DNA of 64,000 nt from positions 4,081-68,080 of the forward strand of contig JBBAFH010000003.1 in the NCBI GenBank assembly GCA_041655535.1, written 5' to 3'. The translations under genes were made by a program, and so were the position numbers. The notes beneath the pieces are model-generated. The model did not search any database and was not told the DNA's origin. It saw only the letters and a list, made by a program, of their open reading frames with translations. Positions 5,511 to 64,000 of this stretch are shown here, piece after piece (position 1 is the stretch's first letter; every line of letters begins with the position of its first letter). The stretch comes from Bacilli bacterium (GTDB taxonomy: Bacteria; Bacillota_I; Bacilli_A; RF39; UBA660).

Positions 5511-8003
5511 CTATTTTCCATGGCAATGTTTATATTTTTTTCCACTTCCACATGGACATAATTCATTGCGTCCTGTTTTTTCAACTTTTTTAGGAGTTCT
5601 TTTAACTGGTTTATCACCATCATTAGCTACTTCTGTTTCAACAACTTTCTTTCTTTCGATATTTTGTCTAATTTCAGAATTTAATAAATATAATGTAATT
5701 TCACGATCAATTGTGTTTAACAGGTTATCAAACATTTCATAACCTTCATTAGTATAAGCTCTTAAAGGATTTTCTTGTGCATATCCTCGTAAGTGAATTC
5801 CTTCTTTTAAATGAGCCATAGTATTAATATGTTCCATCCAATACGTATCAATTACACGAAGGGCGATTGCCTTTTCAAATTCACTCTTAATTTCTTCTGG
5901 AACACTAGATACCTTTTTATCATATTCAGCAATCATTTTTTCAGAAATATAATAAACTATATCATCAGGCAATTTATCTTTTATTTCATCAATAGTAATC
6001 GCATTTCTTAAAAATTTGGTGTTAACCATTTCTAAAATTTCAGATAAATCTGTATCAGTTAAAATCGTAGTTTCCACTAAGTGACTCATAACTAATTCAT
6101 CAACATAATTAGTGAAATTGTCAGCAACCATTTCATATATTGACGGAAAGTCTAATATTTCATTTCTTTTTTCATAAATAATCTTACGTTGTTGATTAAT
6201 AACATCATCATATTGTAATAAAGTTTTTCGAACATCGAAGTTATTTCCTTCAACTCGACGTTGTGCAGATTCAATCATCTTAGCAAACATTGAATTACGA
6301 AGCGATAACTCTCCATCAAAACCAACTTTTTGTAGCATCACTTTAGCGCGATCAGTTCCAAAGCGAACCATTAAATCATCTTCAAATGAAACACAGAATT
6401 GTGACATCCCAGGGTCACCTTGACGACCAGAACGTCCTCTTAACTGATTATCAATTCTTCTTGATTCATGTCTTTCGGTACCTATAACACAAAGACCACC
6501 AATTTCTTTTACTTCAGCACTTAATTTAATGTCAGTACCACGACCAGCCATATTAGTAGCAATTGTTATTGCACCTTTTTGACCAGCATTAGCAATTATT
6601 TCTGCTTCTCTCGCATGATTTTTAGCATTTAAGATTTCATGTGAAATTTTTTCTTTTTTTAATAAAGAACTAATATATTCACTAGTTTCAACAGCAATGG
6701 TTCCAACTAGTACTGGTTGTCCTGTTTCATGTCGCTCTTTAATTTCTTTAACAATTGCTTTAAACTTACCATCTCTAGTAGCAAACATTAAATCTCCGAA
6801 ATCATCACGAACTACTGGAACATTGGTTGGAATGCATATAACATACATGTTATATATTTCGCGAAACTCTTCTTCTTCTGTTTTTGCAGTACCTGTCATA
6901 CCAGATAACTTTTTATACATTCTAAATAAATTTTGGAATGTAATTGTTGCTAAAGTTTTTGTTTCTTCACCAATTTCAACACCTTCTTTAGCTTCAATAG
7001 CTTGGTGGAGTCCATCAGAATAATTTCTTCCTTGCATTAAACGTCCAGTAAATTGATCTACAATAACAATTTTCCCTTCTTCAACCACATAATCGAAATC
7101 CCTTTTCATTGTGTAGTTGGCACGTAATGCTTGGTTAATATAATGAACTAAAGTAGTATTGTTTAAATCAAATAAATTTGATAAACTAAATTCTTTTTCA
7201 GCACTTGAAATACCAGTTTCATCTAAAGCAACAGATTTAGTTTTTTCATCATATATAAACCCATTATTTTCTTTAAGTGTTTTTACAAAACGATCAGCTT
7301 GAATATATAAATTCGATGATTGTAAGAAACCACCAGAAATTATTAAAGGAGTTCTTGCTTCATCTATTAATACTGAGTCAACCTCATCTATAATAACAAA
7401 ATTTAATGGTCTTTGAACTCTATTTTCGGCTTTTACAACCATGTTGTCTCGAAGATAGTCAAATCCTATTTCGTTATTAGTAGAATATAAAATATCACAA
7501 GCATATGCTTCTTTCTTCTCACTAGGAGTTAAGTCACGATGATTGACCCCAACTGTTAAACCTAAAAAGCGATAAATATTTCCCATCCAATTCGCATCAC
7601 GGTCAGCCAAATATTCATTAACTGTAATTATATGAACTCCTTCACCGGTTAAAGCATTTAAGTAAGCTGGCATGGTTGAAGTTAAAGTTTTACCTTCTCC
7701 TGTTTTCATTTCGGCAATATTGCCGTAGTGAATTGCTAACCCACCAACTAATTGAACATAATATGGCTTTTCACCAATTACACGAAATGCTGCTTCACGA
7801 ACTACAGCAAAAGCTTCTTCTTTAACATCTTCTAAAGTTTCCCCTTTTTTTATTCGTTCTTTGAATTCTTCGGTTTTATTTTTCAACTCTTCATCACTAA
7901 GTTTACTTATTTTTTTGTCGAGTTTTTCTATTTCATCAGCTATTTTTTGAAACTTTTCAAGTTCTTTGTATTCATGATCAAATATCTGTTTAAAAAACTT
8001 CAT
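5511..8003 (-). CDS. secA: Preprotein translocase ATPase SecA
   Basis: 830 aa. Contains the Walker A motif MKTGEGKT, DEVDSVLIDEARTPLIISG, and the C-terminal zinc finger CPCGSGKKYKHCHGK. Confidence 0.97.
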   Translation of the reverse strand: MKFFKQIFDHEYKELEKFQKIADEIEKLDKKISKLSDEELKNKTEEFKERIKKGETLEDVKEEAFAVVREAAFRVIGEKPYYVQLVGGLAIHYGNIAEMKTGEGKTLTSTMPAYLNALTGEGVHIITVNEYLADRDANWMGNIYRFLGLTVGVNHRDLTPSEKKEAYACDILYSTNNEIGFDYLRDNMVVKAENRVQRPLNFVIIDEVDSVLIDEARTPLIISGGFLQSSNLYIQADRFVKTLKENNGFIYDEKTKSVALDETGISSAEKEFSLSNLFDLNNTTLVHYINQALRANYTMKRDFDYVVEEGKIVIVDQFTGRLMQGRNYSDGLHQAIEAKEGVEIGEETKTLATITFQNLFRMYKKLSGMTGTAKTEEEEFREIYNMYVICIPTNVPVVRDDFGDLMFATRDGKFKAIVKEIKERHETGQPVLVGTIAVETSEYISSLLKKEKISHEILNAKNHAREAEIIANAGQKGAITIATNMAGRGTDIKLSAEVKEIGGLCVIGTERHESRRIDNQLRGRSGRQGDPGMSQFCVSFEDDLMVRFGTDRAKVMLQKVGFDGELSLRNSMFAKMIESAQRRVEGNNFDVRKTLLQYDDVINQQRKIIYEKRNEILDFPSIYEMVADNFTNYVDELVMSHLVETTILTDTDLSEILEMVNTKFLRNAITIDEIKDKLPDDIVYYISEKMIAEYDKKVSSVPEEIKSEFEKAIALRVIDTYWMEHINTMAHLKEGIHLRGYAQENPLRAYTNEGYEMFDNLLNTIDREITLYLLNSEIRQNIERKKVVETEVANDGDKPVKRTPKKVEKTGRNELCPCGSGKKYKHCHGK

Positions 8004-11304: not shown

Positions 11305-12008
11305 AGCTTTGATACCTCTTTTTTATATTTAGGACTCAACCAATCTATCTCAACTCCAGTATCAAAAGTTATTTTTTTCTTAGCTAAATTGACAATTGAT
11401 ACTCTAGTAGAATTAATAATACATGACCGATGTGATTGGACAAATACATCACCTAACATTTCAGACATATCCATTAGTGTTTTATTTACACTAAGTTGTG
11501 AATAGTCAGTATTTATAATAACCTTTCGCTCGATACTATCTCTGGTTATATATAATATATCATTAATTGGTATGGTATATATAGCTCCTCTATCTTCAAA
11601 ACGAATTACTCCTTTTTTTCCTAAAACATCCAGAGCTTTAGAAATAGATTTACTTAAATGTTTAGGATAGTCATCATACTTATTTATAAAAGATAAAAAT
11701 AAAAATTCATTTTTTAAAATAGTATATCCCAGTTCATCGTGTGATGTTAAAAAGATAATAACGCTTTCAATATCAATTTTTCTAATTACTCGAGCTATAT
11801 CGATTCCTGAAGAAGATGGAGTTTCGATATCCAATATATATATTCTGAAAGGTAACTTTGAACGCATTAATTTCATAAAACTATTATCATAATCATCAAA
11901 CAAATGACATTGATATTCCATTTTGTTTTTTAACATTTCTTCATCAATAATAGAATTAATTTGATTTAAAATTTCTGCATTGTCATCACATACAACAAAA
12001 TTAACCAT
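11301..12008 (-). CDS. agrA: LytTR-family response regulator (AgrA-like)
   Basis: The start is most likely ATG at 12008 (MVNFVVCDDNAEIL, SD GAGGTG). The track ORF start at 12083 adds an implausible extension. Receiver domain plus a C-terminal LytTR domain (IYTIPINDILYITRD...VQSHRSCIINSTRV). Confidence 0.9.
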   Translation of the reverse strand: MVNFVVCDDNAEILNQINSIIDEEMLKNKMEYQCHLFDDYDNSFMKLMRSKLPFRIYILDIETPSSSGIDIARVIRKIDIESVIIFLTSHDELGYTILKNEFLFLSFINKYDDYPKHLSKSISKALDVLGKKGVIRFEDRGAIYTIPINDILYITRDSIERKVIINTDYSQLSVNKTLMDMSEMLGDVFVQSHRSCIINSTRVSIVNLAKKKITFDTGVEIDWLSPKYKKEVSKL

Positions 12009-12340: not shown

Positions 12341-12781
12341 TTTGTTCCCCCCTTTTATATTTCTATAATAGGTTATTCATATACTTCATTCTTGAATGTG
12401 GATTAAACTATATTAAACGTTTTTTACCAATCTTTTATTTTACATAGTTATTAAACTCATTAAAAGAGGAGGTGTGATCGTCTCTGATTTTTTGTCATCA
12501 ATAATATCTAAAAGGGTTTTATTATGGTTATATGAAATAAATATATTTGACACTTTTGATAACTAGCACTCACTACTAACCCGACTTATTTCAGTTGAAA
12601 CAGTCCCTTTATATAAGTATAATTTTTTCAGATATCTTTTACTGTCATAATACATTAAACATTCTAAAAGATGTGCTTTTTGACATTTCTCATTAGCTGG
12701 TTTTTTTAAAATTTTTGATTATATGATTCAATCATTCGATCATAACTTCTAATATGGTTAAAATGTCAAATATTTTGCTCG

Positions 12782-37574: not shown

Positions 37575-39275
37575 CTAATTGTTATATTCTATAATATTTC
37601 CAAACAAACTGTGAATTTCATCATTATTTTTGTTTGATTCAGTTTGTTTGGTTAGATATTCTAACATCTTTGGAGTTTCCTCTTTATAAATGTATGTAAT
37701 TGTTTTAGATTTAAATTCTTTACGGTGAAAATTCCACTCTTCTTTGTTTAAAGCAATTATCTTATAATTATGACCAAATATTTTATTGATAAATTGTTCT
37801 ATTGCTAATATATTGTTATTAAAGGTTTTTTCCATGCTATCGCTTGAATAAACAAAAATTATGTTTTCAGCGCTTGCAGCAGGAATTTTGGCATCTAGTA
37901 AAATCGATGCGATTTTATTATAGTTTTTATCCAAAATATAATCTCTTGCTTTTTCAATTTCATTTTTTAATTTATTTAAAATTGTTTTACTCGGTTTTGA
38001 AAAAGTATTATTTACTCTTAATTTTTTCAACTTTGATAATTCTTCATCATCTTTATCAGTTATTGTTTTTTGGTTTTGACTTTTCTTTGTTTCTTCCTTA
38101 ACGTCTGGTTGCTTTTCTATTTCTGTTTCTTTTACTTTTTCTTGATTTTTTATGTTTTGTAATTCTTTTTTTTGATTTTGGTTTATTGATATTGGCTTCA
38201 CTTCATCGTTTCTTATCAGTGAAACCATTAATAATTCAAATACTAATCTCGGATTATTAAAATTTTTCATTTCATTTAAAGAATTATTTATTACTAATAT
38301 CATTTTAAACAATTCATTTGTATCGGTTTTATCAATAAACTCATTATATATTTCCCGGGAAATGTTGTTGTTTGAATATGTGGGAATATTTTTATAAATT
38401 ATAACGTTTTTTATAAATTTTATTATTTCCTCAACTAACTTAATTAAATTTTTGCCATTATTATCATAATCATCGAGAAGTAAAAAGATTTTAGATAAAT
38501 CTTTTTCAATGATACTATCTATTAATTCCCTCATTTGATTATGCGGCAAAGTTCCATTTATTTCGTTTACATCAGCTATGGTTATTTTATTTTCAGAATA
38601 AACAGATGATTGCTCTAGCATACTTATTGCATCACGCATACCACCTGACGAAAAGCGAACTATTTCTTCTAGTGCATCTTCTTCAATGCTAATCGCTTCT
38701 TTTTCACATATATATTTTAACCTTTGCGACATACTTTTTTCATCTATTCTTTTAAATTCAAATTTTTGACATCTAGAAAGTATAGTTTCAGGTATTTTAT
38801 GAGGTTCTGTTGTTGCTAAAATGAAAATAATATGCGATGGTGGTTCTTCCAATGTCTTTAATAACGCATTAAATGCACCGATTGTCAACATGTGAACTTC
38901 ATCTATTATGTAAATTTTATACTTACCAATTGACGGAACCAGTGACACTTTACTTTTTAATTCACGAATTTCATCTACTCCATTATTAGAAGCCGCATCT
39001 ATTTCTACAATATCAACACTTTGTTTTTGAATTATTTGTGTACAATTGACACATTTGTTACATGGTTCATATTCTTTTAAATTAATGCAATTAACTGTTT
39101 TAGCCAAAACCTTTGCGACACTAGTTTTTCCAGTACCTCTAGGGCCTGTAAATAAATAAGCGTGAGTAATTTTGTTGCTAGCTATTTCGTTTTTCAATAT
39201 TTTGATTATAACTTTTTGACCAACAACTTCTTCTAATGTTTGTGGTCTATATTTTCTGTATAATGATTGATACAT
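37575..39275 (-). CDS. dnaX: DNA polymerase III gamma/tau subunit
   Basis: Contains GPRGTGKTS, the zinc module CNKCVNC, DEVHML and SRCQ. Confidence 0.95.
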   Translation of the reverse strand: MYQSLYRKYRPQTLEEVVGQKVIIKILKNEIASNKITHAYLFTGPRGTGKTSVAKVLAKTVNCINLKEYEPCNKCVNCTQIIQKQSVDIVEIDAASNNGVDEIRELKSKVSLVPSIGKYKIYIIDEVHMLTIGAFNALLKTLEEPPSHIIFILATTEPHKIPETILSRCQKFEFKRIDEKSMSQRLKYICEKEAISIEEDALEEIVRFSSGGMRDAISMLEQSSVYSENKITIADVNEINGTLPHNQMRELIDSIIEKDLSKIFLLLDDYDNNGKNLIKLVEEIIKFIKNVIIYKNIPTYSNNNISREIYNEFIDKTDTNELFKMILVINNSLNEMKNFNNPRLVFELLMVSLIRNDEVKPISINQNQKKELQNIKNQEKVKETEIEKQPDVKEETKKSQNQKTITDKDDEELSKLKKLRVNNTFSKPSKTILNKLKNEIEKARDYILDKNYNKIASILLDAKIPAASAENIIFVYSSDSMEKTFNNNILAIEQFINKIFGHNYKIIALNKEEWNFHRKEFKSKTITYIYKEETPKMLEYLTKQTESNKNNDEIHSLFGNIIEYNN

Positions 39276-39326: not shown

Positions 39327-39764
39327 CTAATTCCTTTTATCTTTAAAAAACACTTTTAGCATTTCAGAAGATTCTTTTGTATATAGATTATTAATTTGTT
39401 CTGATTCTAAATTAACTTTTAATGTATCGGGGATATTGCTAAAAAAACCTGTTTTTTCAGATGAAGCAGCATAAAAAATTTTTGATATTCTTGATTGTAT
39501 TATTGCACCATAACACATTAAACAAGGTTCGAGCGTTACATATAATATACAGTCATCCAAATGCCAACTATTTAATTTTTTACATGCCTTTTCTATTGCA
39601 ATAATTTCTGCATGATTTGTAACTAATTGATTTTTTTCGCGTTTGTTATGAGCTTTTGCCAAAACAATGCCATCTTTAACAATTATTGCACCTACCGGAA
39701 CATCGTTTGATTTAAGTGATTTTTTCGCTTCTATTAGAGCTAATTTCATATATTCATTTTTCAT
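39327..39764 (-). CDS. tadA: tRNA-specific adenosine deaminase TadA
   Basis: Start is ATG at 39764 (MKNEYMKLALIEAKK). Contains HAEIIAI and PCLMCYGAI. The track ORF start at 39836 would overlap the SRP RNA. Confidence 0.9.
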   Translation of the reverse strand: MKNEYMKLALIEAKKSLKSNDVPVGAIIVKDGIVLAKAHNKREKNQLVTNHAEIIAIEKACKKLNSWHLDDCILYVTLEPCLMCYGAIIQSRISKIFYAASSEKTGFFSNIPDTLKVNLESEQINNLYTKESSEMLKVFFKDKRN

Positions 39765-39795
39765 AATACACCCCTTATATAATAACACAAAAAAA

Positions 39796-39868
39796 GACAC
39801 ACACATATAGGGAATCTTAAGGCTGCTATTTTCCAATCCTGACCTGGTTCAATTATATATGTTGTGTC
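39796..39868 (-). ncRNA. ffs: Short (4.5S-type) signal recognition particle RNA
   Basis: The reverse complement reads GACACAACATATATAATTGAACCAGGTCAGGATTGGAAAATAGCAGCCTTAAGATTCCCTATATGTGTGTGTC followed by TTTTTTT. It is a long hairpin with the conserved domain IV elements CAGGUCAGG...GGAA tetraloop...AGCAGCC. Confidence 0.7.
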
Positions 39869-39916
39869 AATTAAGATAATATAATATTTAATTTAAAAAA
39901 GCAATTTTATTTAAAA

Positions 39917-40037
39917 TGTTTCACGTGGAACATTTGGTGTTGATGTTTTGATGTTTCACGTGGAACATTTGGTGTTGATGTTTTGATGTTTCACGTGGAA
40001 CATTTGGTGTAGGGGCTTTGATGTTTCACGTGGAACA
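39917..40037. repeat. Array of four perfect parS (ParB/Spo0J-binding) sites in a 35-bp tandem repeat, plus one extra half-site
   Basis: TGTTTCACGTGGAACA occurs at 39917-39932, 39952-39967, 39987-40002 and 40022-40037. This is the exact reverse complement of the Bacillus parS consensus TGTTCCACGTGAAACA. The repeat unit is ATGTTTCACGTGGAACATTTGGTGTTGATGTTTTG. A half-site GTGGAACA lies at 40050-40057 within a 20-bp direct repeat TGGAACATTAAACTATATA x2. Confidence 0.85.
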
Positions 40038-40081
40038 TTAAACTATATAGTGGAACATTAAACTATATAAAAGAAGACATT

Positions 40082-42532
40082 TTAAATATCTTCTTTTGTT
40101 TCTTCAACAATATTTTCTTCTTCATTTATCACAATAGCGATTGAACTAACTTTTTGATCTTCTTTAAGATTGATTAATCTAACTCCTTGTGCAATTCTAC
40201 CTATCCTTGAAACTTGATTTAATGATAGTCTTATAACTGTACCAAAATTAGTTACCATTAATAAATCTTCATTTCCATCCACAAGTTTAAAAGCAATTAA
40301 ATTTCCGTTTTTTTCAGTTATGTTAAGAGCTTTAACACCTTTTGTACCACGGTGTGTTACTCTATATTCATTTATATCAGTTTTCTTGCCGTAACCCTTT
40401 TCAGTTACAATTAATACTTCTTGATCATCCGTTGCTATTTCACAACCAATACATTTGCTTTTTCCTACGTTTATACCTCTAACACCGCTAGCGGTTCTGC
40501 CCATAATTCTTATTTCTGATTCATTAAATCTAATCATTCTTCCATCAGTTGTAGCAATCATTATATCGTTATTTCCATTAGTTTTTTTAACTGATATTAA
40601 TTCATCATCTTCTTTAAGTGTTATTGCTAATTTTCCTGTTACTCTTATACTTTCAAATTCTGAAATTTTAGTTCTTTTTATTAAACCATTTTGTGTACAA
40701 AATACAACATTGTGGTCTTTATCTTCTTCAGTAACACGTAACAGAACATTAACTTTTTCATCTTTATCTAATGGTAATAGATTAATTATTGGTAAACCTT
40801 TTGATTGTCTATTAAATATTGGAATCGTATAACCTTTAATTCTATATACTTTTCCTTTATTAGTAAAGAATGTTATATAATCATGTGTTGTCATAACCAA
40901 TAAATGTTCAACAATATCTTCTTCGTTAATTGACATGCCTTTTATACCTACTCCACCTCTATTTTGAGTACGATAAGTTTCACTGTTAATTCTTTTTATG
41001 TAACCTTTATCAGTTAATGTCACAACTATATCTTCAACTGGTATTAAAGACTCATCTTCTATATATTCAATTGATGTCATGTCAATGTTAGTCTTTCTGT
41101 CATCTCCATACTTAGTCTTTATTTCAAGTAACTCTTCTCTTACAATATTGAGAATTTTTTCGTTACTAGATAATATTTCTCTTAAGTTTTCAATCAAAGC
41201 CAATAATTCTTTTAATTCTGATTCTATTTTTTCTCTTTCTAAACCAGTTAATCTTCTTAATTTCATTTCTAAAATTGCTTCAGATTGTAACTGACTTAAT
41301 TGAAATTTTTGAATTAATTTTTCAATTGCTTCAGTATCAGAGTTTGCTGCTTTAATTATTCTAATAATCTCATCTATGTTATCAAGAGCAATTCCTAATC
41401 CTTCTAGTATATGTGCTCTTTTTTCTGCTTTCTCTAGATCAAATTTTGTTCTTCTAATAATTACTGCTTTTTGATGTTCAATATATTTTTCAATTATTGT
41501 TTTTAAACCAAGCAGTTTTGGTTCTCCATCTACTAAAGCCAATAAATTTATTCCATAAGAAATTTGTAAATTTGTATATTTAAATAAGTTATTCAATATA
41601 ACGTTAGCGTTAGCATCTCTTCTTACTTCTATTACTATTTTTATTCCTTTTAAATCTGTCTCGTCTCTTAAATCAGTTATACCTTCTATTACTTTTTCAC
41701 GAGCTAAATCGGCAATTTTTGTGATTAATGACGACTTATTAACTTGATATGGGATTTCTGTAATTACAATACTTTGCTTTCCGTTTTTATTTTCAACGAT
41801 TTCAGAAGATGCTCTGATGGTAATTATTCCCTTCCCGGTATCATATGCCTTTTTTATTCCACTATTACCAAGAATATGAGCGCCTGTTGGAAAATCAGGT
41901 CCTTTAATATAATCCATCAACTCAAGTGTTGTAATATCGTTATTATCGATGTATGCAACACACCCATCTATTACTTCTCTTAAATTATGAGGTGGAATAT
42001 TGGTTGCCATACCAACTGCTATTCCCATTGTACCGTTTACTAATATATTAGGAAAACGACTTGGTAAAACACTTGGTTCTTTCCTTTCACCATCATAGTT
42101 AATACCAAAATCAACAGTATCTTTGTTTATATCTCTTAACATTTCCATAGAAATTTTAGCAAGTTTTGATTCTGTATAACGCTGTGCAGCAGCCGAATAA
42201 CCATCAATAGAACCAAAGTTACCATGTCCATCAACTAAAACATAACGATAGTTAAATGGTTGAGCCATTCTAACCATAGTGTCATATACTGCTGTATCCC
42301 CGTGAGGGTGATAATGTGCTAAAACATTACCAACAGTGTTTGCACTCTTAACAAATTTCTTTTCTGGTAAGAATCCTTCTTCATACATTGTGTATAAAAT
42401 ACGTCTATGTACTGGTTTTAGACCATCACGAACATCAGGTAATGCTCTAGATACAATAACACTCATCGAATAGTCAAGAAACGATCCTTCCATCTCATCT
42501 GAAATATTAATATCTTTTAATTTTTCATCCAT
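40082..42532 (-). CDS. gyrA: DNA gyrase subunit A
   Basis: 816 aa. Contains [16 protein letters not shown], the catalytic AAQRYTE, and a C-terminal beta-pinwheel. Confidence 0.97.
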
Positions 42533-45686: not shown

Positions 45687-45714
45687 AGTAAAAAAAAGCG
45701 TAATTAACGCTTTT
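45687..45714 (-). terminator. Rho-independent terminator after comK
   Basis: Minus strand reads AAAAGCGT-taatt-ACGCTTTT followed by TTTTAC. An extended -10 (TGTGATATAAT, minus strand) for recF follows. Confidence 0.6.
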
Positions 45715-46162
45715 ATTTGTTTTTTCTCTGTCTCAATATTGATTCAAGCCTTGAAGCTCTCAAAACTTGATTTTCAAAAGAAGAATATGAGATAGGAATT
45801 TCTAATGATGTTCCATTTTTAAAGTAAATAATAGTATTATTTTTTTCTTTCTCATAATGAGAAACTTTATTCAATGAGAACCATGAGCATTCAGACGAAC
45901 GTGCTGATCCTGTTGGAAAGAAAATTATTTCTCTACTCTCTTCAATTATTATAGGGGATTTGTATATTGTTCCACCTAAAAAGTGTTTGCTGCCCTCAAA
46001 TCTGCCTAAATAAGAACTTCCGAAATAACGACAACTATCATCAATAATTTTTGGAGTTACACGTTCTACGATAAAACTACCATCATCTTCGATAATTTTA
46101 CTTTTTTGATTATCAAGTGCAATTATTGCAATAGTTGATAAATTAATTTCATATTTTTCCAC
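45713..46162 (-). CDS. comK: Competence transcription factor ComK
   Basis: YEINLSTIAII, SCRYFGSSYLGRFEGS, IIFFPTGSARSSECSW and LEIPISYSSFENQVLRASRL align with B. subtilis ComK (SCRFFGSSYAGRKAGT, IFLFPTLSS...CGW, LPISYNSFENQVYRTAWL). The likely start is GTG at 46162, 8 nt after AGGAGG. The track start at 46171 overlaps that SD. Confidence 0.85.
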   Translation of the reverse strand: MEKYEINLSTIAIIALDNQKSKIIEDDGSFIVERVTPKIIDDSCRYFGSSYLGRFEGSKHFLGGTIYKSPIIIEESREIIFFPTGSARSSECSWFSLNKVSHYEKEKNNTIIYFKNGTSLEIPISYSSFENQVLRASRLESILRQRKNK

Positions 46163-46246
46163 TAATTTCACCTCCTACTAATATAATTCGACAAATAAAT
46201 CGAATTTCCTTCCTATCATATAATATTTTTTTTTGTTTTTGGGCAA

Positions 46247-47460: not shown

Positions 47461-47594
47461 ATTCTTATTTTTTTAAGTAATATTATTATTATAGATGTGG
47501 ATTGTGTGGATAACTCTAATAAATACCATAATATAAAAGTAAAGCTAATAAAATTAATTGTGGAAAAATATATATTTTAAAAAGTTATTCACAA
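47461..47594. promoter_or_regulatory. oriC, dnaA-dnaN part: an AT-rich unwinding candidate plus a DnaA-box cluster
   Basis: AT-rich run at 47461-47494. Perfect DnaA box TGTGGATAA at 47505-47513. Variant boxes are TGTGGATTG (47496-47504), TGTGGAAAA (47559-47567) and TTATTCACA (47585-47593). Confidence 0.7.
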
Positions 47595-48947
47595 TTATTT
47601 TAAATCTCTAATAATTTTATTAATCTCTTTATCTAAATTTATATTATTTTTTAATTCTTTATTAATTTTATCAACTGAATGCATTACTGTAGTGTGATCT
47701 TTTCCACCAAACATAGATCCAATTTTAGCAAATGGTTCATTGTAAACAGTTCTGCAAATATACATAGCTATTTGTCTAGGAACCGCAATATTGGTAACTC
47801 TTCTTTTTCCTTTTAAATCCTCAATAGTAATATTATAAAGATTTGCTACAAGTTGTTGAACATGTTCAATATTGTTTTTAGCTGTAATACACTTACCAAA
47901 ATAATCCTTTAATGCTTCAACTGTTAAAGTTAAAGTAATGTCTGATCCACTCATCATAGCTGCATAAGCAACCACTCTTGTAATCGCCCCTTCTAATTTT
48001 CTAATATCACCAATACAGTTACTAGCAATATATTCTTTAACTTCCTGTGGGAAACTATTATTTAGTCCGTTTCCTTCTATTTTCTTTTCTATAATAGATA
48101 GTCTTAAATCAAAATCAGGTGGCATTATATCAACCATTAATCCCCAAGTAAATCTAGTTCTTAATCTATCTTCTAATTGTTTTAAATCATCTGGTGATCT
48201 ATCAGATGAAATAATTATTTGCTTATTGTTAGTATGAAGTTCATTAAATGTGTTGAAAAATTCCTGTTGTGTTTTATTTGCAACCTCTAAATATTGAATA
48301 TCATCAATCATAAGTACATCAATATCCCTATATTTTCTTTTAAAGTTTTCAACTTCATTTAAGTTATTATCATTCTTATTTTTTCTGTATAATTCTATAA
48401 AATCGTTAACAAATTGTTCACTAGTTACATATAAAACTTTTTTATTAGAATTACTTACAATGTAATTACCTATTGCATGCATTAAATGAGTTTTACCTAA
48501 ACCACTATTACTATAAATAAATAAAGGATTGTACATAATACCAGGTTTTTCTGCAACTGCTATAGCAGTTGTTTTAGCAAATCTATTGCTTTCTCCTACT
48601 ACAAAATTCTCAAATAAGTATTTTGGATTTAAATTAGAAGCAAAAGAATTTGTCGATTCTTCTTCAATGATTTCAATTTGTTCATCTTTTAGTTTTTCAA
48701 TCTCTTCTTCAGTAAAATAATCAAAAATAAAATTAGAACCTGTTACTTCATTGAATATATTTTCAATTAAAGTATTATAATTTTCTTTAAGATGTTTTTT
48801 GTGAATCAACATTGGTACTAAAACTGTGGCTTTATTTTCATGCAACGAAATTAATTTAGTATCAGCAAACCAAGCTTCATATAACATTGGTGCTAAATTA
48901 TTATTCATTTTTTTAAGAAAATTATCCCAAATATTGTTTATTTCCAT
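47595..48947 (-). CDS. dnaA: Chromosomal replication initiator DnaA
   Basis: Start is ATG at 48947 (MEINNIWDNF, SD TGAGGTG). Contains Walker A SNSGLGKTHLMHA, MIDDIQ, and the C-terminal DNA-binding motif GGKDHTTVMHS. The track start at 49058 adds a spurious extension across the DnaA boxes. Confidence 0.96.
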   Translation of the reverse strand: MEINNIWDNFLKKMNNNLAPMLYEAWFADTKLISLHENKATVLVPMLIHKKHLKENYNTLIENIFNEVTGSNFIFDYFTEEEIEKLKDEQIEIIEEESTNSFASNLNPKYLFENFVVGESNRFAKTTAIAVAEKPGIMYNPLFIYSNSGLGKTHLMHAIGNYIVSNSNKKVLYVTSEQFVNDFIELYRKNKNDNNLNEVENFKRKYRDIDVLMIDDIQYLEVANKTQQEFFNTFNELHTNNKQIIISSDRSPDDLKQLEDRLRTRFTWGLMVDIMPPDFDLRLSIIEKKIEGNGLNNSFPQEVKEYIASNCIGDIRKLEGAITRVVAYAAMMSGSDITLTLTVEALKDYFGKCITAKNNIEHVQQLVANLYNITIEDLKGKRRVTNIAVPRQIAMYICRTVYNEPFAKIGSMFGGKDHTTVMHSVDKINKELKNNINLDKEINKIIRDLK

Positions 48948-49192
48948 AAATGCGCACCTCACTTTATTAACTAAAATTATTTTACACCAAAAACACAAAA
49001 AAACCAAGTAAAATCGGCTTTTCCACAATGAAAACATCAAAAAACATTTGTTTTCCACATAATTGGGGATAACAAAAAAGAAATTAACAATTTAAATAGA
49101 AAAGTTTTCCACATAATTGGGGATAACTTAGTTCTTATAAGAAAACAAAGACTTAAAAAAAAATAGATATTAACAAAGTTGTGTGAATATTG
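48948..49192. promoter_or_regulatory. oriC, upstream-of-dnaA part: DnaA-box cluster with a duplicated composite element
   Basis: TTTTCCACA occurs at 49018-49026, 49050-49058 and 49104-49112. The 24-nt unit TTTTCCACAtaatTGGGGATAAC is duplicated at 49050-49073 and 49104-49127 (54-bp period). Each unit pairs two inverted box variants. TGTGAATAT lies at 49181-49189. Confidence 0.7.
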
Positions 49193-56237: not shown

Positions 56238-56934
56238 ACAGGAATTTGTGCAAGCAATTAGTGAATTAGGAATTGAAATAACTGATTATCAAAGAAAACA
56301 ATTTAAAAAGTACTATGAATTGCTTATTGAGTGGAACGAAAAAATGAATTTAACCGGAATTACTAAAAAGGAAGAAGTCTATTTAAAACATTTCTATGAT
56401 AGTGCAACAATAATTAAAATTATAAAAGTTGAGGATTTTCAAAATCTATGTGATGTTGGTTCTGGTGCAGGTTTTCCCGGTGTGATAATCAAAATATTAT
56501 ACCCTGATTTAAAAATTACCTTGATTGATTCATTACTGAAACGAATTACCTTTTTAGATGAAGTAATTAAAGAATTGAAACTTGAAAAAATAGAGACAAT
56601 TCACTGTCGAATTGAAGAATTTGGTCAAGAAAATAGGGAGTCTTTTGATATTGTAACAGCACGAGCGGTTGCACCCTTAAATGTTTTATTGGAATACTGT
56701 ATTCCTATAGTAAAAAAGGACAAATTTTTCGTACCATTAAAAGGTAATATTTCCCGGGAAATAAGTTTATCGAATAAAGCACTTATTGAATTAAAATGTA
56801 AGATTATAAATAAGATGGAGTTTTATTTGCCAATAGAGAATAGTTTTAGAAGTTTGATACTTGTAAAAAAAGAAGAATTAACACCAATGAAATATCCTAG
56901 AAGGTTCGATAAAATAAAGAAAAAACCATTATAA
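56221..56934 (+). CDS. rsmG: 16S rRNA (guanine527-N7)-methyltransferase RsmG
   Basis: Contains the SAM motif DVGSGAGFPG and ARAVA. An alternative start is ATG at 56230. Confidence 0.93.
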   Translation: MKEMNEQEFVQAISELGIEITDYQRKQFKKYYELLIEWNEKMNLTGITKKEEVYLKHFYDSATIIKIIKVEDFQNLCDVGSGAGFPGVIIKILYPDLKITLIDSLLKRITFLDEVIKELKLEKIETIHCRIEEFGQENRESFDIVTARAVAPLNVLLEYCIPIVKKDKFFVPLKGNISREISLSNKALIELKCKIINKMEFYLPIENSFRSLILVKKEELTPMKYPRRFDKIKKKPL

Positions 56935-57048: not shown

Positions 57049-58548
57049 GTGGAAAACGATAAAAAAATTGTTAATTTAAATTTGGATGATATATTGCCTA
57101 ATAGATTCCAACCAAGAATTAAATTTGACGAAAAAGCTATTAATGAATTAGCTGGTTCTATAAAAGAACACGGTGTAATTCAACCAATTTTAGTTAGAGA
57201 AATTGGTGATAAATACGAAATAATCGCTGGTGAAAGAAGATATAAAGCTAGTACTGTTGCGGGGTTAGAAAAAATACCAGCTATTATTAATAATTTAAAT
57301 GATCATGATAGTGCCGAAGTTGCACTTATTGAAAATATTCAAAGAAAAGATCTAACACCTATTGAAGAGGCAATATCTTATAAAAAAATATTGGATATGG
57401 GGTATTTGAATCAAGAGTCATTAGCATCAAAGATTGATCGTAATCAATCAACGATTTCAAATAAATTACGATTACTTAATTTAGATGATTTAGTACAAGA
57501 GGCATTATTAGATAATAAAATATCTGAAAGACATGCTCGTTCTTTACTTAGACTATCGGATAAAACAAAACAACAAGAAATGTTAAACAGAATTATTGCC
57601 GAACGTTTAACAGTTAGAAGAACTGATGAAGAAATCGATAAATTGTTAGATGTTGTAAGCAAACCTGAAGAAAATCGAAATGAGGAAATAAAAATGAATA
57701 ATCCATCTCAAAAAGATATTTTCAACATGCCATCAACACCAATAATTGAAGAAATAGAAATTTTTGATGATTTTGAAAATATTGATGAACAACCAGCGAT
57801 AGTTTCTTTTCCGAAAAATGAGATTGAAGAAACAAACTTTAAACCTGGTTTTTTAGATATTGATAAAATCGAAAAAAATGCTGAGGAAATTCATGTTGAA
57901 AAACCAGTGGCAGACTTGGATAGTTTGTTAAAATCAGATGAACAATTTGCTGATTTAAACTCTGTTCAAAATGATCCGATTATTGAGCCACAGGTAACAG
58001 AAGGAAAATTCTTTAGTTTTGTTACCAACGATGTTAATAACCTTGGAACCAAAGAATATGATGATGGAAAGTTCAATGATTTTGATTTCAAAATAGATAA
58101 CGTAGAAACTACACAAAATTTAAATACTGAGGAAACAGACGTGAAACCAATAACTATTGAAGAACCAATAAACCCTGAAATTAATTATAATATTGAACCA
58201 GATATTCAACCGACAGCAAATAATGATTTTTCTAATAGTAACTATTTTGATAATATTCAACCTGATTACAACTTTAATTTTGATGAAGAAGAAACAACAG
58301 AAGCAATAGGAGAACCTAAAACCGACGTTAATGAATTCGAATCAGTTGAACCGAATTATAATATCCCAGCCGTGAATGATTTAGATTCTGCTAGCATTGA
58401 AAATAATTCAGGAAATTTTCAAGAAGTTATAATGTATGCTAGAAGCTGTGGGAAAAAGATTGAAGAACTTGGATATTTTATAGATGTTGACGAAGTAGAT
58501 TTTGGAGATAAGTATCAAATTACTTTTAAAATTAGTAAAATTAAATAA
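57049..58548 (+). CDS. noc: ParB/Noc-family protein (Noc-like by position) with a long acidic insertion
   Basis: GTG start with SD AAGGGAGG. Contains the ParB N-domain motifs LPNRFQPR and GERRYKAS, the HTH motif QSTISNKLRLL, and ISERHARSLL. The C-terminal ...FGDKYQITFKISKIK resembles the Noc C-terminal end. It is 499 aa, against roughly 280-290 aa for typical Noc. Confidence 0.75.
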   Translation: MENDKKIVNLNLDDILPNRFQPRIKFDEKAINELAGSIKEHGVIQPILVREIGDKYEIIAGERRYKASTVAGLEKIPAIINNLNDHDSAEVALIENIQRKDLTPIEEAISYKKILDMGYLNQESLASKIDRNQSTISNKLRLLNLDDLVQEALLDNKISERHARSLLRLSDKTKQQEMLNRIIAERLTVRRTDEEIDKLLDVVSKPEENRNEEIKMNNPSQKDIFNMPSTPIIEEIEIFDDFENIDEQPAIVSFPKNEIEETNFKPGFLDIDKIEKNAEEIHVEKPVADLDSLLKSDEQFADLNSVQNDPIIEPQVTEGKFFSFVTNDVNNLGTKEYDDGKFNDFDFKIDNVETTQNLNTEETDVKPITIEEPINPEINYNIEPDIQPTANNDFSNSNYFDNIQPDYNFNFDEEETTEAIGEPKTDVNEFESVEPNYNIPAVNDLDSASIENNSGNFQEVIMYARSCGKKIEELGYFIDVDEVDFGDKYQITFKISKIK

Positions 58549-62940: not shown

Positions 62941-63726
62941 ATGGGAAAGATAATTTCACTAGTTAATCAAAAAGGTGGAGTTGGAAAAACAACATCAAGT
63001 ATAAATTTAGCAGCCTCATTAGGTATATTAAGAAAAAAAGTTTTATTGGTGGATTTAGATCCACAAGGTAATACAACCACCGGGATTGGTTTAAATAAAG
63101 CTGATGTTAAAAAAAGCATATATGATTTATTAATAGATGAAGCAACATTAAATGAAGTGATTGTAAAAACAAAATTCAAGAATTTATATGTAATTCCTGC
63201 GACTATAAATCTAGCAGGAGTAGACATTGAATTGATGGATAAAAGTCGCCAAGAACCTGGTTTTGCTAAAGGAGGCCAATTAAAAAAATATTTAAGTGAA
63301 ACAAAAGAAATGTTTGACTATATAATTATTGACTGTCCACCATCTTTAGGAATTTTAACAACTAACGCATTAACGGCTAGTGATTCAGTTATAATTCCAG
63401 TTCAATGTGAGTTTTTCGCCTTAGAAGGAATTATGCAATTATTAAACACAATTATGCTGGCTCAAAAAAATCTAAATCCAACTCTCGATATTGAGGGTGT
63501 ATTACTTACAATGTTAGATAGCAGAACTAAGTTAGGACTAGAAGTAGTTGAAGAAATTAAAAGCTATTTCAAGGAACGCGTATATGATACAATAATTCCA
63601 AGATTAGTTCGTTTATCAGAAGCACCAAGCCATGGTAAACCAATTCTAGCCTATGATCCACAAAGTCGTGGAACAGAAGCATATTTGAATTTAGCTAAGG
63701 AAGTGATTGAACGAAATGGAAAATAA
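62941..63726 (+). CDS. soj: Chromosome partitioning ATPase Soj/ParA
   Basis: Contains the deviant Walker A NQKGGVGKTT, DLDPQGN, and IIIDCPPSLG. Confidence 0.96.
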   Translation: MGKIISLVNQKGGVGKTTSSINLAASLGILRKKVLLVDLDPQGNTTTGIGLNKADVKKSIYDLLIDEATLNEVIVKTKFKNLYVIPATINLAGVDIELMDKSRQEPGFAKGGQLKKYLSETKEMFDYIIIDCPPSLGILTTNALTASDSVIIPVQCEFFALEGIMQLLNTIMLAQKNLNPTLDIEGVLLTMLDSRTKLGLEVVEEIKSYFKERVYDTIIPRLVRLSEAPSHGKPILAYDPQSRGTEAYLNLAKEVIERNGK

Positions 63727-64000
63727 AAAAAGAGCCCTTGGTATGGGATTGGAGCAACTTTTTAACAGTGAAAATTTAGATCTTGCTAGCGTTGAAAAAA
63801 AGATATACGAAACAGCAAATCGAGAAGAAATAATAGAAATTAATTTAAGTGAATTAAGACCTAATCCTTATCAACCACGTAAAGTGTTTGACGAAAATGC
63901 AATTAATGAATTAGCATCTTCAATAAAAGAACATGGTGTTTTTCAACCTATAATAATAAAAAAGACGATAAAAGGCTATGAAATAATTGCTGGTGAAAGA
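63716..64000 (+). CDS. spo0J: Chromosome partitioning protein Spo0J/ParB, 5'-partial (runs off the window)
   Basis: Not in the track because there is no stop in the window. ATG at 63716 overlaps the soj end. Translation is MENKKRALGMGLEQLF...LRPNPYQPRKVFDENAINELASSIKEHGVFQPIII...YEIIAGER. Confidence 0.9.
   Translation, partial: MENKKRALGMGLEQLFNSENLDLASVEKKIYETANREEIIEINLSELRPNPYQPRKVFDENAINELASSIKEHGVFQPIIIKKTIKGYEIIAGER

Follow-up and report, generated by a model that had tools for sequence, protein, structure and literature searches.

A tandem array of consensus parS sites between gyrA and ffs, a probable ParB-loading centromere of an uncultured low-GC Bacilli bacterium

The spacer between gyrA and ffs in the chromosome of an uncultured, low-GC Bacilli bacterium contains four, possibly three, perfect parS sites. 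It is quite probable that they form a functional ParB-loading array, that is, an origin-proximal chromosomal centromere in which the multiplicity of sites is selected. Judged from the DNA, the sites belong to the chromosomal parS family by every feature testable here, and the array appears to be a real ParB loading site of a fairly ordinary kind. The sites are best read as a ParB-loading centromere since canonical parS sites are found near the origin, genes for ParA and ParB are present, and the gyrA-ffs spacers of relatives contain parS as well. The array would then mark the likeliest point at which the chromosome of this organism is grasped for segregation, and the centromere should be annotated between gyrA and ffs, not at parB. 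The analysis covers a 64-kb stretch of a metagenome-derived genome, here called the window, and the organism is known only from metagenomes.

Sequence and Repeat Structure of the Array

An exact-match scan of the window located TGTTTCACGTGGAACA at positions 39917-39932, 39952-39967, 39987-40002, and 40022-40037 (sites 1-4). Its reverse complement is the Firmicute parS consensus TGTTCCACGTGAAACA, and all four sites are assigned to the minus strand, on which site 1 reads TGTTCCACGTGAAACA. As claimed in a preliminary description of this DNA the agreement is complete, all four sites matching 16/16 positions of the parS consensus TGTTNCACGTGAAACA, a 16-bp near-palindrome. Site 1 adjoins the ffs promoter region, and site 4 is on the gyrA side of the array. 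Each unit of the array consists of the 16-bp parS and a 19-bp spacer, and the units are head-to-tail direct repeats containing one parS each. Tandem Repeats Finder reports the stretch 39916..40039 as a repeat with a 35-bp period (3.5 copies, 95% matches). The segment between the sites had been described as repeated as well. This is true for spacers 1 and 2, which are identical (TTTGGTGTTGATGTTTTGA), as are units 1 and 2, but the spacer from site 3 toward site 4 is changed at six of its 19 positions. Within the array there are 6/19 changes in this one spacer versus 0/64 in the sites. A CRISPR-like array was ruled out because of the 35-bp period and because the "spacers" recur as well.

The array is followed by a 20-nt direct duplication of GTGGAACATTAAACTATATA at 40030..40069 (Tandem Repeats Finder: period 20, 2.0 copies, 100% matches), which had earlier been read as 19 nt long. 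It overlaps the right half of site 4 and thereby creates the lone half-site at 40050-40057 that had already been recognized. The duplication is probably a slippage product. Half-parS sites in P. aeruginosa reportedly bind ParB weakly (PMC10419367), and by analogy the half-site found here may do so too, although it looks more like a by-product of slippage.

No further parS-like site with up to three mismatches is present anywhere in the 64-kb window, as was also stated in the preliminary description. A shuffle control at the same threshold gave on average 0.52 matches in 100 shuffles, and none reached the observed count of eight. When the fully palindromic form of parS was used the sole extra match was a three-mismatch site at 12587 that does not have the CACGTG core. 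The next 10 kb to the right of the window have no parS-like site with up to two mismatches. Over about 74 kb around oriC, parS-like sites are confined to the array, and none was found in or next to parB.

Genomic Context

The array sits in a spacer between co-oriented transcription units, with the gyrA stop on one side and the ffs promoter region on the other. In the direction of transcription gyrA (40082..42532, minus strand; NCBIfam DNA gyrase subunit A, 1177 bits) is upstream of the array, while ffs, which encodes the small SRP RNA (39780..39878, minus strand; Rfam RF00169, 62.5 bits), is downstream and has tadA (39327-39764, minus strand) as its next neighbor. The order on the minus strand is dnaA (47595-49058), dnaN, a comK-like gene, recF, gyrB, gyrA, the array, ffs, tadA, dnaX, ybaB, and recR. 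Beyond oriC are found rpmH, rnpA, yidC, jag, mnmE, mnmG, rsmG, a gene of the ParB family, uvrB, lgt, a trxB-like gene, parA, and the start of parB. The ComK-family gene (45713-46171, minus strand; Pfam PF06338, 1e-43) is kept between dnaN and recF in five of the relatives described below (L130, L132, L255, L256, and L257).

The position of oriC was deduced from the change of sign in GC skew at about 49-50 kb, the dnaA-dnaN-recF-gyrB-gyrA synteny, and the DnaA boxes. The boxes form two clusters, both considered part of oriC: one in the dnaA-dnaN spacer (47505..47593), and one at and upstream of the start of dnaA (49019..49126). The array lies on the left replichore, 7.5 kb from the former and 9 kb from the boxes upstream of dnaA, and the earlier figure of about 8 kb from oriC was a fair one. 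The distance between the array and parAB is 23 kb, with oriC in between.

A promoter-like element for ffs, TTGCTT-N17-TATTAT, can be read from the sequence at 39876..39904 (minus strand) and is conserved in the sister species. Its -35 hexamer has its edge 12 bp away from parS site 1. At the gyrA end of the array, RNA folding predicts a hairpin with a 12-bp stem and a 3-nt loop over the gyrA stop codon (40070..40097, minus strand), and this hairpin might act as a weak terminator for gyrA. Neither the promoter-like element nor the hairpin was picked up in scans for consensus promoters and terminators, and both assignments are therefore tentative.

It is very improbable that the palindromes serve another role, whether as binding sites for Noc, as an operator through which ffs or gyrA is regulated, or as an RNA structure or terminator. 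The short distance between site 1 and the -35-like hexamer of ffs would fit such a role, and ParB-type proteins can repress promoters beside parS in P. aeruginosa (PMC5521831). The transcript of the array also folds strongly (z = -7.5). The fold is, however, an automatic result of repeated palindromes, the spacer 39879-40081 has no match in Rfam, and no terminator was called in the array; a structured RNA or an intrinsic terminator was ruled out for these reasons. Furthermore, the distances to the promoter vary among relatives, two of which (L072 and L104) have most or all of their further sites downstream of ffs. Regulatory coupling to ffs was set aside since relatives differ in where the array lies with respect to ffs, but a side effect on ffs transcription is possible by analogy. 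The sequence is in addition that of parS and not that of the Noc-binding site, which is present separately in the window, as described in the section on ParB and Noc.

Copy Number and Assembly

The number of units is not secure. The ENA contig ERZ27247346:k141_1274299 (L001) agrees with the window throughout the DNA flanking the array (100% identity over 5.6 kb on one flank and about 3 kb on the opposite one), but has three units versus the four of the window; the unit that is absent is one of the identical units 1 and 2. A Logan contig from the same strain (SRR8449813) is likewise 100% identical and ends inside the array. The earlier claim of four sites at 35 bp is thus exact for 39917, 39952, 39987, and 40022, but the count is insecure (three or four) since an otherwise identical contig has three units. 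The fourth site, an identical internal unit, is polymorphic or assembly-dependent, and the array consists of four, possibly three, sites. Collapse of identical units is the usual error in short-read assembly. As such collapse undercounts, the number given here is likelier to be too low than too high.

The preliminary description had named a single site multiplied by the assembly as what would undo its claim. That a single site, or some other number of sites, has been mis-assembled from short reads is hardly credible. Two assemblies of one strain do differ by one unit, and short-read contigs of the strain and of relatives stop inside arrays. Three of the sites are nevertheless anchored by distinct junctions (toward the 20-nt repeat, at the variant spacer, and toward the ffs promoter), and these junctions recur in independent assemblies. 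An artifact made from a single site is ruled out. Moreover, typical reads are longer than the periodic stretch (95 bp), arrays are also found on long contigs of relatives (1.2 Mb in L257 and 355 kb in L256), and a collapse of identical units would lower the count and not invent sites. A scan of JGI metagenomes for the species-specific junction GTTTAATGTTCCACGTGAAACATCAAAG gave no match.

Short-read contigs ending inside parS arrays were seen for the same strain (L002) and for the relatives L127/L128, L081, and L130/L131. Short-read assemblies break at such arrays or collapse them, and a parS count based on MAGs, at the gyrA-ffs locus in particular, is therefore a lower bound.

ParB and the Noc-Type Paralog

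The gene for the partner ATPase, parA/soj (62941..63726, plus strand), was recognized by matches to the ParA family and overlaps the start of parB/spo0J, of which the first 95 codons are inside the window (63716..64000, plus strand). The full protein of 293 amino acids was obtained from the same strain (L123, 10776-11657). It scores 211 bits against B. subtilis Spo0J (PDB 6SDK), and carries GERRVRA, the CTP-binding arginine patch, as well as GKSRSHITN and MGHAR. Jalal et al. (PMC7383237) showed that all parS-binding ParBs share R173 and G201 (Caulobacter numbering), whereas Noc proteins have Q173, K179 and/or K184, and R201. With the numbering anchored on the equivalents of the conserved N178 and R204, the specificity residues of the 293-aa ParB are R-I-R-G, which is the parS type, the arginine being that of KSR and the glycine that of MGHAR.

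A second protein of the ParB family, of 499 amino acids, is encoded after rsmG, that is, in the Noc position (57049-58548, plus strand). Its specificity residues are Q-K-N-R, the Noc type. Its domains are ParB_N and HTH_ParB, and it has a C-terminal extension of roughly 300 amino acids that is acidic and of low complexity. Since the reading frame starts five amino acids before ParB_N, the N-terminal helix that targets B. subtilis Noc to the membrane could not be accommodated. Exact Noc-binding sites (NBS, ATTTCCCGGGAAAT) are found in the window at 38350-38363 and 56749-56762, inside dnaX and rsmG, and two exact NBS are very unlikely to occur by chance at a genomic G+C content of about 27%. The sites of the array have the CACGTG core of parS and do not match NBS. 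The site sequence and the specificity residues rule out Noc binding at the array, and the array can be assigned to ParB because the Noc-type protein is a separate one, with exact NBS of its own elsewhere. No gene for SMC or ScpAB was seen in the 64-kb window.

parS Sites in the gyrA-ffs Spacer of Relatives

Eight relatives, all MAGs named 'Mollicutes bacterium' or 'Bacilli bacterium' in their source, were picked solely by the identity of their GyrA or TadA proteins and without reference to parS. The gyrA-ffs spacer contains at least two perfect parS sites in seven of the eight, and the eighth (L127/L128, GyrA 95%) is cut off, its contigs stopping just where an array with a 37-bp period begins. 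The comparison of copy number among relatives that had been proposed thus gave 2 to 17 copies in the same spacer.

The relative picked by TadA (L254, 89%) has three perfect sites spaced 38/37 bp and flanked on either side by decayed units, and its spacers are recognizably homologous to those of the window, with a 3-bp indel. At a GyrA identity of 86%, L129 has three perfect sites and one with a single mismatch at the irregular spacings of 156 and 86 bp. At least two sites are found in L130/L131 (81%), where they are part of a 207-bp repeat which also holds an NBS and at which the contig ends. L132 (78%) has at least four perfect sites and one with a mismatch at 63 bp, the array being broken by a run of N. 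Two perfect sites and a one-mismatch site at 43/44 bp are present in L255 (72%), and three perfect sites at 37 bp in L256 (70%). The most extensive array is that of L257 (69%; GCA_037071015.1, JBAMOY010000001.1, a 1.2-Mb contig), with 16 perfect sites and one with a 1-nt deletion at a period of 34 bp. This array, at 6523-7079, is the largest natural chromosomal parS array among the loci examined here. In L130 (7650-7681) an exact NBS abuts parS inside the 207-bp unit, and in L255 a near-NBS, ATTGCCCGGGAAAT, follows the parS cluster at about 6605-6620.

Four further relatives (L081, L072, L104, and L031) come from a scan for pairs of parS and are thus biased toward having them. L081 has three sites at 42 bp where its contig ends, L104 has five sites, and L031 has seven. 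L072 has ten sites: one after gyrA, four in the ffs-tadA spacer at 44 bp, two in the tadA-dnaX spacer, and three inside dnaX. Pairs or triplets of parS inside the coding sequence of dnaX are found in L072 (7874-7979), L104 (4221-4281), and L031 (2209-2293). They are always in one codon phase, encoding (N/D)V(P/S)R(E/G)T in a variable linker. The dnaX of the window itself has no parS. Further parS pairs occur in the tadA-dnaX spacer of more distant relatives.

The periods in the relatives are 34, 37-38, 42, 43-44, and 63 bp, and once 207 bp, compared to 35 bp in the window. It had been pointed out that with 35 bp between them successive sites would be on different faces of the DNA. As the period varies from 34 to 63 bp among the tandem arrays of relatives there is no conserved helical phase and no visible constraint of this kind, and helical phasing was ruled out as a design feature. 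Except for the spacers of L254, which are homologous to those of the window, the spacer sequences and unit lengths are unrelated across the relatives, while the 16-mers stay perfect. Perfect sites, unrelated spacers, and differing periods in one and the same spacer location point to selection on the 16-mer combined with turnover by tandem duplication. As far as can be told from the sequences, the pattern is the one expected from selection for the site together with repeated tandem amplification and decay, and argues for it.

Mechanism and Evolution of the Array

The steps proposed here follow the established ParABS model (PMC7333895, PMC7053999, PMC8299390). By analogy with B. subtilis Spo0J and Caulobacter ParB, a ParB dimer would bind each parS. 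Binding of CTP would then close the dimer into a clamp, the clamp would leave parS and slide onto the flanking DNA, and the vacated parS could load another dimer. With 35 bp from center to center (about 12 nm) four ParB dimers could probably sit side by side. Such an arrangement would provide redundancy and a higher loading flux, with the inner clamps having to wait for the outer ones to leave. The outcome would be one ParB focus near oriC on which ParA acts, and which would load SMC if the genome has it. The earlier expectation that the array should act as a dominant point of ParB loading and SMC recruitment was overstated. ParB-dependent condensation in vitro has been found to scale with the number of parS (PMC8299390). 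On the other hand, a single parS reportedly suffices for segregation in P. aeruginosa (PMC4368675), and in vivo a single parS is often enough in several model species (PMC7333895), so extra copies may add little.

The array itself would grow and shrink by slippage or unequal exchange, units being homogenized in the middle and decaying at the edges, while selection would keep the 16-mer perfect and in more than one copy at the gyrA-ffs locus across the clade. Signs of turnover are the three versus four units between identical flanks and the adjacent 20-nt duplication. Reviews have asked why the number of parS varies, and how clusters of parS expand (PMC7333895, PMC5815017). The locus and its relatives show one route of expansion, tandem duplication and decay of a parS unit at a conserved position, with 2-17 copies.

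If sites are functional it may still be asked whether their number matters. The extra units could be neutral slippage products in an AT-rich spacer, with no selected role for multiplicity, but this is rather unlikely. The three versus four copies in otherwise identical contigs would be explained in this way. So would the perfect duplication of 20 nt beside the array, which carries a half-site only and clearly points to slippage, and the decayed units at the array edges in L254, L129, L132, and L255. The sufficiency of one parS in P. aeruginosa (PMC4368675) and often elsewhere (PMC7333895) also fits. Neutral slippage would not, however, lead one to expect at least two perfect sites in seven of eight relatives picked by homology, with the eighth cut off at the start of its array. 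Neither are the sites of L129 simple tandem copies, given their 156- and 86-bp spacing. More distant relatives have, in addition, pairs of parS in the tadA-dnaX spacer as well as inside dnaX, where the codon phase is fixed; from their sequence and placement these pairs look like the result of pressure to accumulate sites and not of drift.

A bolder version of the preferred ParB-loading array is that the centromere of the clade is a fast-evolving satellite at the fixed gyrA-ffs locus, with two to at least 17 copies, and that multiplicity itself is selected. We regard this as doubtful. Were it true, copy number may also vary within a strain, multiplicity would tune the ParB loading flux or offset the lack of dispersed sites, and these genomes would constitute a natural experiment on the expansion of bacterial centromeres.

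Comparison with Known Centromeres

The closest likeness to the ParB-loading array is found in the chromosomal system of B. subtilis and other Firmicutes. The 16-bp sequence is identical and the position is origin-proximal, ParB is Spo0J-like with the GERR motif, ParA/Soj is encoded next to it, and there is a Noc paralog with separate NBS. The parS sites of B. subtilis are scattered around the origin, and they are often imperfect and often located within genes. The sites of the window, which are the only ones in about 74 kb, are by comparison perfect, intergenic, and head-to-tail at 35 bp. In PMC7614844 the B. subtilis sites are described as 'clustered near the origin'.

Caulobacter, Corynebacterium glutamicum, Myxococcus xanthus, and Pseudomonas aeruginosa also have several parS near oriC and one ParB zone (PMC5815017, PMC7083940, PMC3899335, PMC4368675). 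Their clusters span kilobases and contain sites of unequal strength, whereas the window has exact copies in a 121-bp minisatellite in which the origin by duplication is still visible.

The architecture is similar to that of the F-plasmid centromere sopC, in which a 43-bp unit is directly repeated 12 times and SopB binds a 16-bp inverted repeat within each unit (PMC3177203). Both consist of tandem direct repeats with one 16-bp palindromic site for a ParB-family protein in each, both have a variable copy number, and in both the majority of copies are presumably not needed. They differ, however, in motif and in ParB subtype, and sopC is located on a plasmid beside sopAB, whereas the array is chromosomal, between the core genes gyrA and ffs and 23 kb from parAB. 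The array was therefore ruled out as a member of the sopC-like plasmid centromeres. When 72,556 plasmids were searched by BLAST with the array, a trivial 32-nt stretch was the one match, and hence there is no evidence of a plasmid origin. The notion of a plasmid-style centromere, put forward in the preliminary description, is apt for the architecture but not for the location, since oriC separates the array from parAB and core genes surround it.

Compact parS Arrays in Other Genomes

A compact array had at first been considered exceptional. To see how common such arrays are, one genome per GTDB species was scanned for two consensus parS sites with 0-30 bp between them (up to 46 bp apart). At least 120 genome loci have a close pair, and they come from Actinomycetota, Bacillota, Bacteroidota, Pseudomonadota, Acidobacteriota, and others. 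Among the matches listed, the largest array at each locus has two sites in 96 cases, three in 22, and four in two, which makes 24 with three or more. The two four-site loci among these matches are L072, a relative of the organism studied here, and a Lachnospiraceae. In 93 of the 120 matches listed a gene of the origin region, mostly parA, rsmG, or mnmG, is within the 8-kb piece. Since close pairs and triplets are common across phyla, the tandem array is less exceptional than first thought. Four sites are near the top among the matches listed, and the 16-17 of L257 are exceptional.

Such groups in other genomes resemble the array in having 2-4 consensus sites at 23-46 bp center-to-center in spacers of the origin region. 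Examples are the three sites at 39 bp next to parA in Collinsella and the 4+3 sites at 46 bp in the Lachnospiraceae L118. They differ in that they are mostly found beside parA, rsmG, or mnmG, while the present clade uses the gyrA-ffs-tadA-dnaX region and reaches 16-17 units. Many Collinsella species (L038, L042, L051, L056, L063, L068, L073, L082, L100, and L110) have three consensus parS at exactly 39 bp between rsmG and parA, a conserved array in a different phylum.

For a specialist the surprise is modest, as the mechanism is otherwise that of established ParABS systems and compact pairs and triplets are common. What goes beyond the textbook is the organization as a tandem repeat, the fixed gyrA-ffs location, and the range of 2-17 copies within the clade. 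A full-text literature search returned engineered tandem parS and kilobase-scale clusters and no natural chromosomal tandem array, although one may have been described before. Natural arrays of consensus parS at 34-63 bp could serve as compact cassettes for ParB loading.

Close pairs of parS are found in viruses as well. In IMG/VR at least 120 viral contigs (L133-L252) have two chromosomal-type parS sites no more than 46 bp apart, and the commonest spacing among the matches listed is 42 bp. Natural spacings of 23-24 bp occur in phage genomes. A dozen or so viral contigs of roughly 11-12 kb, among the matches listed, have a parS pair near each end. One of these, L142, with pairs at 252-309 and 11475-11532, is phi29-like and encodes a protein-primed DNA polymerase B, a Gp16 ATPase, a connector, and a Phi29 major capsid protein. 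Its end pairs recall the Spo0J-binding sites of phage phi29.
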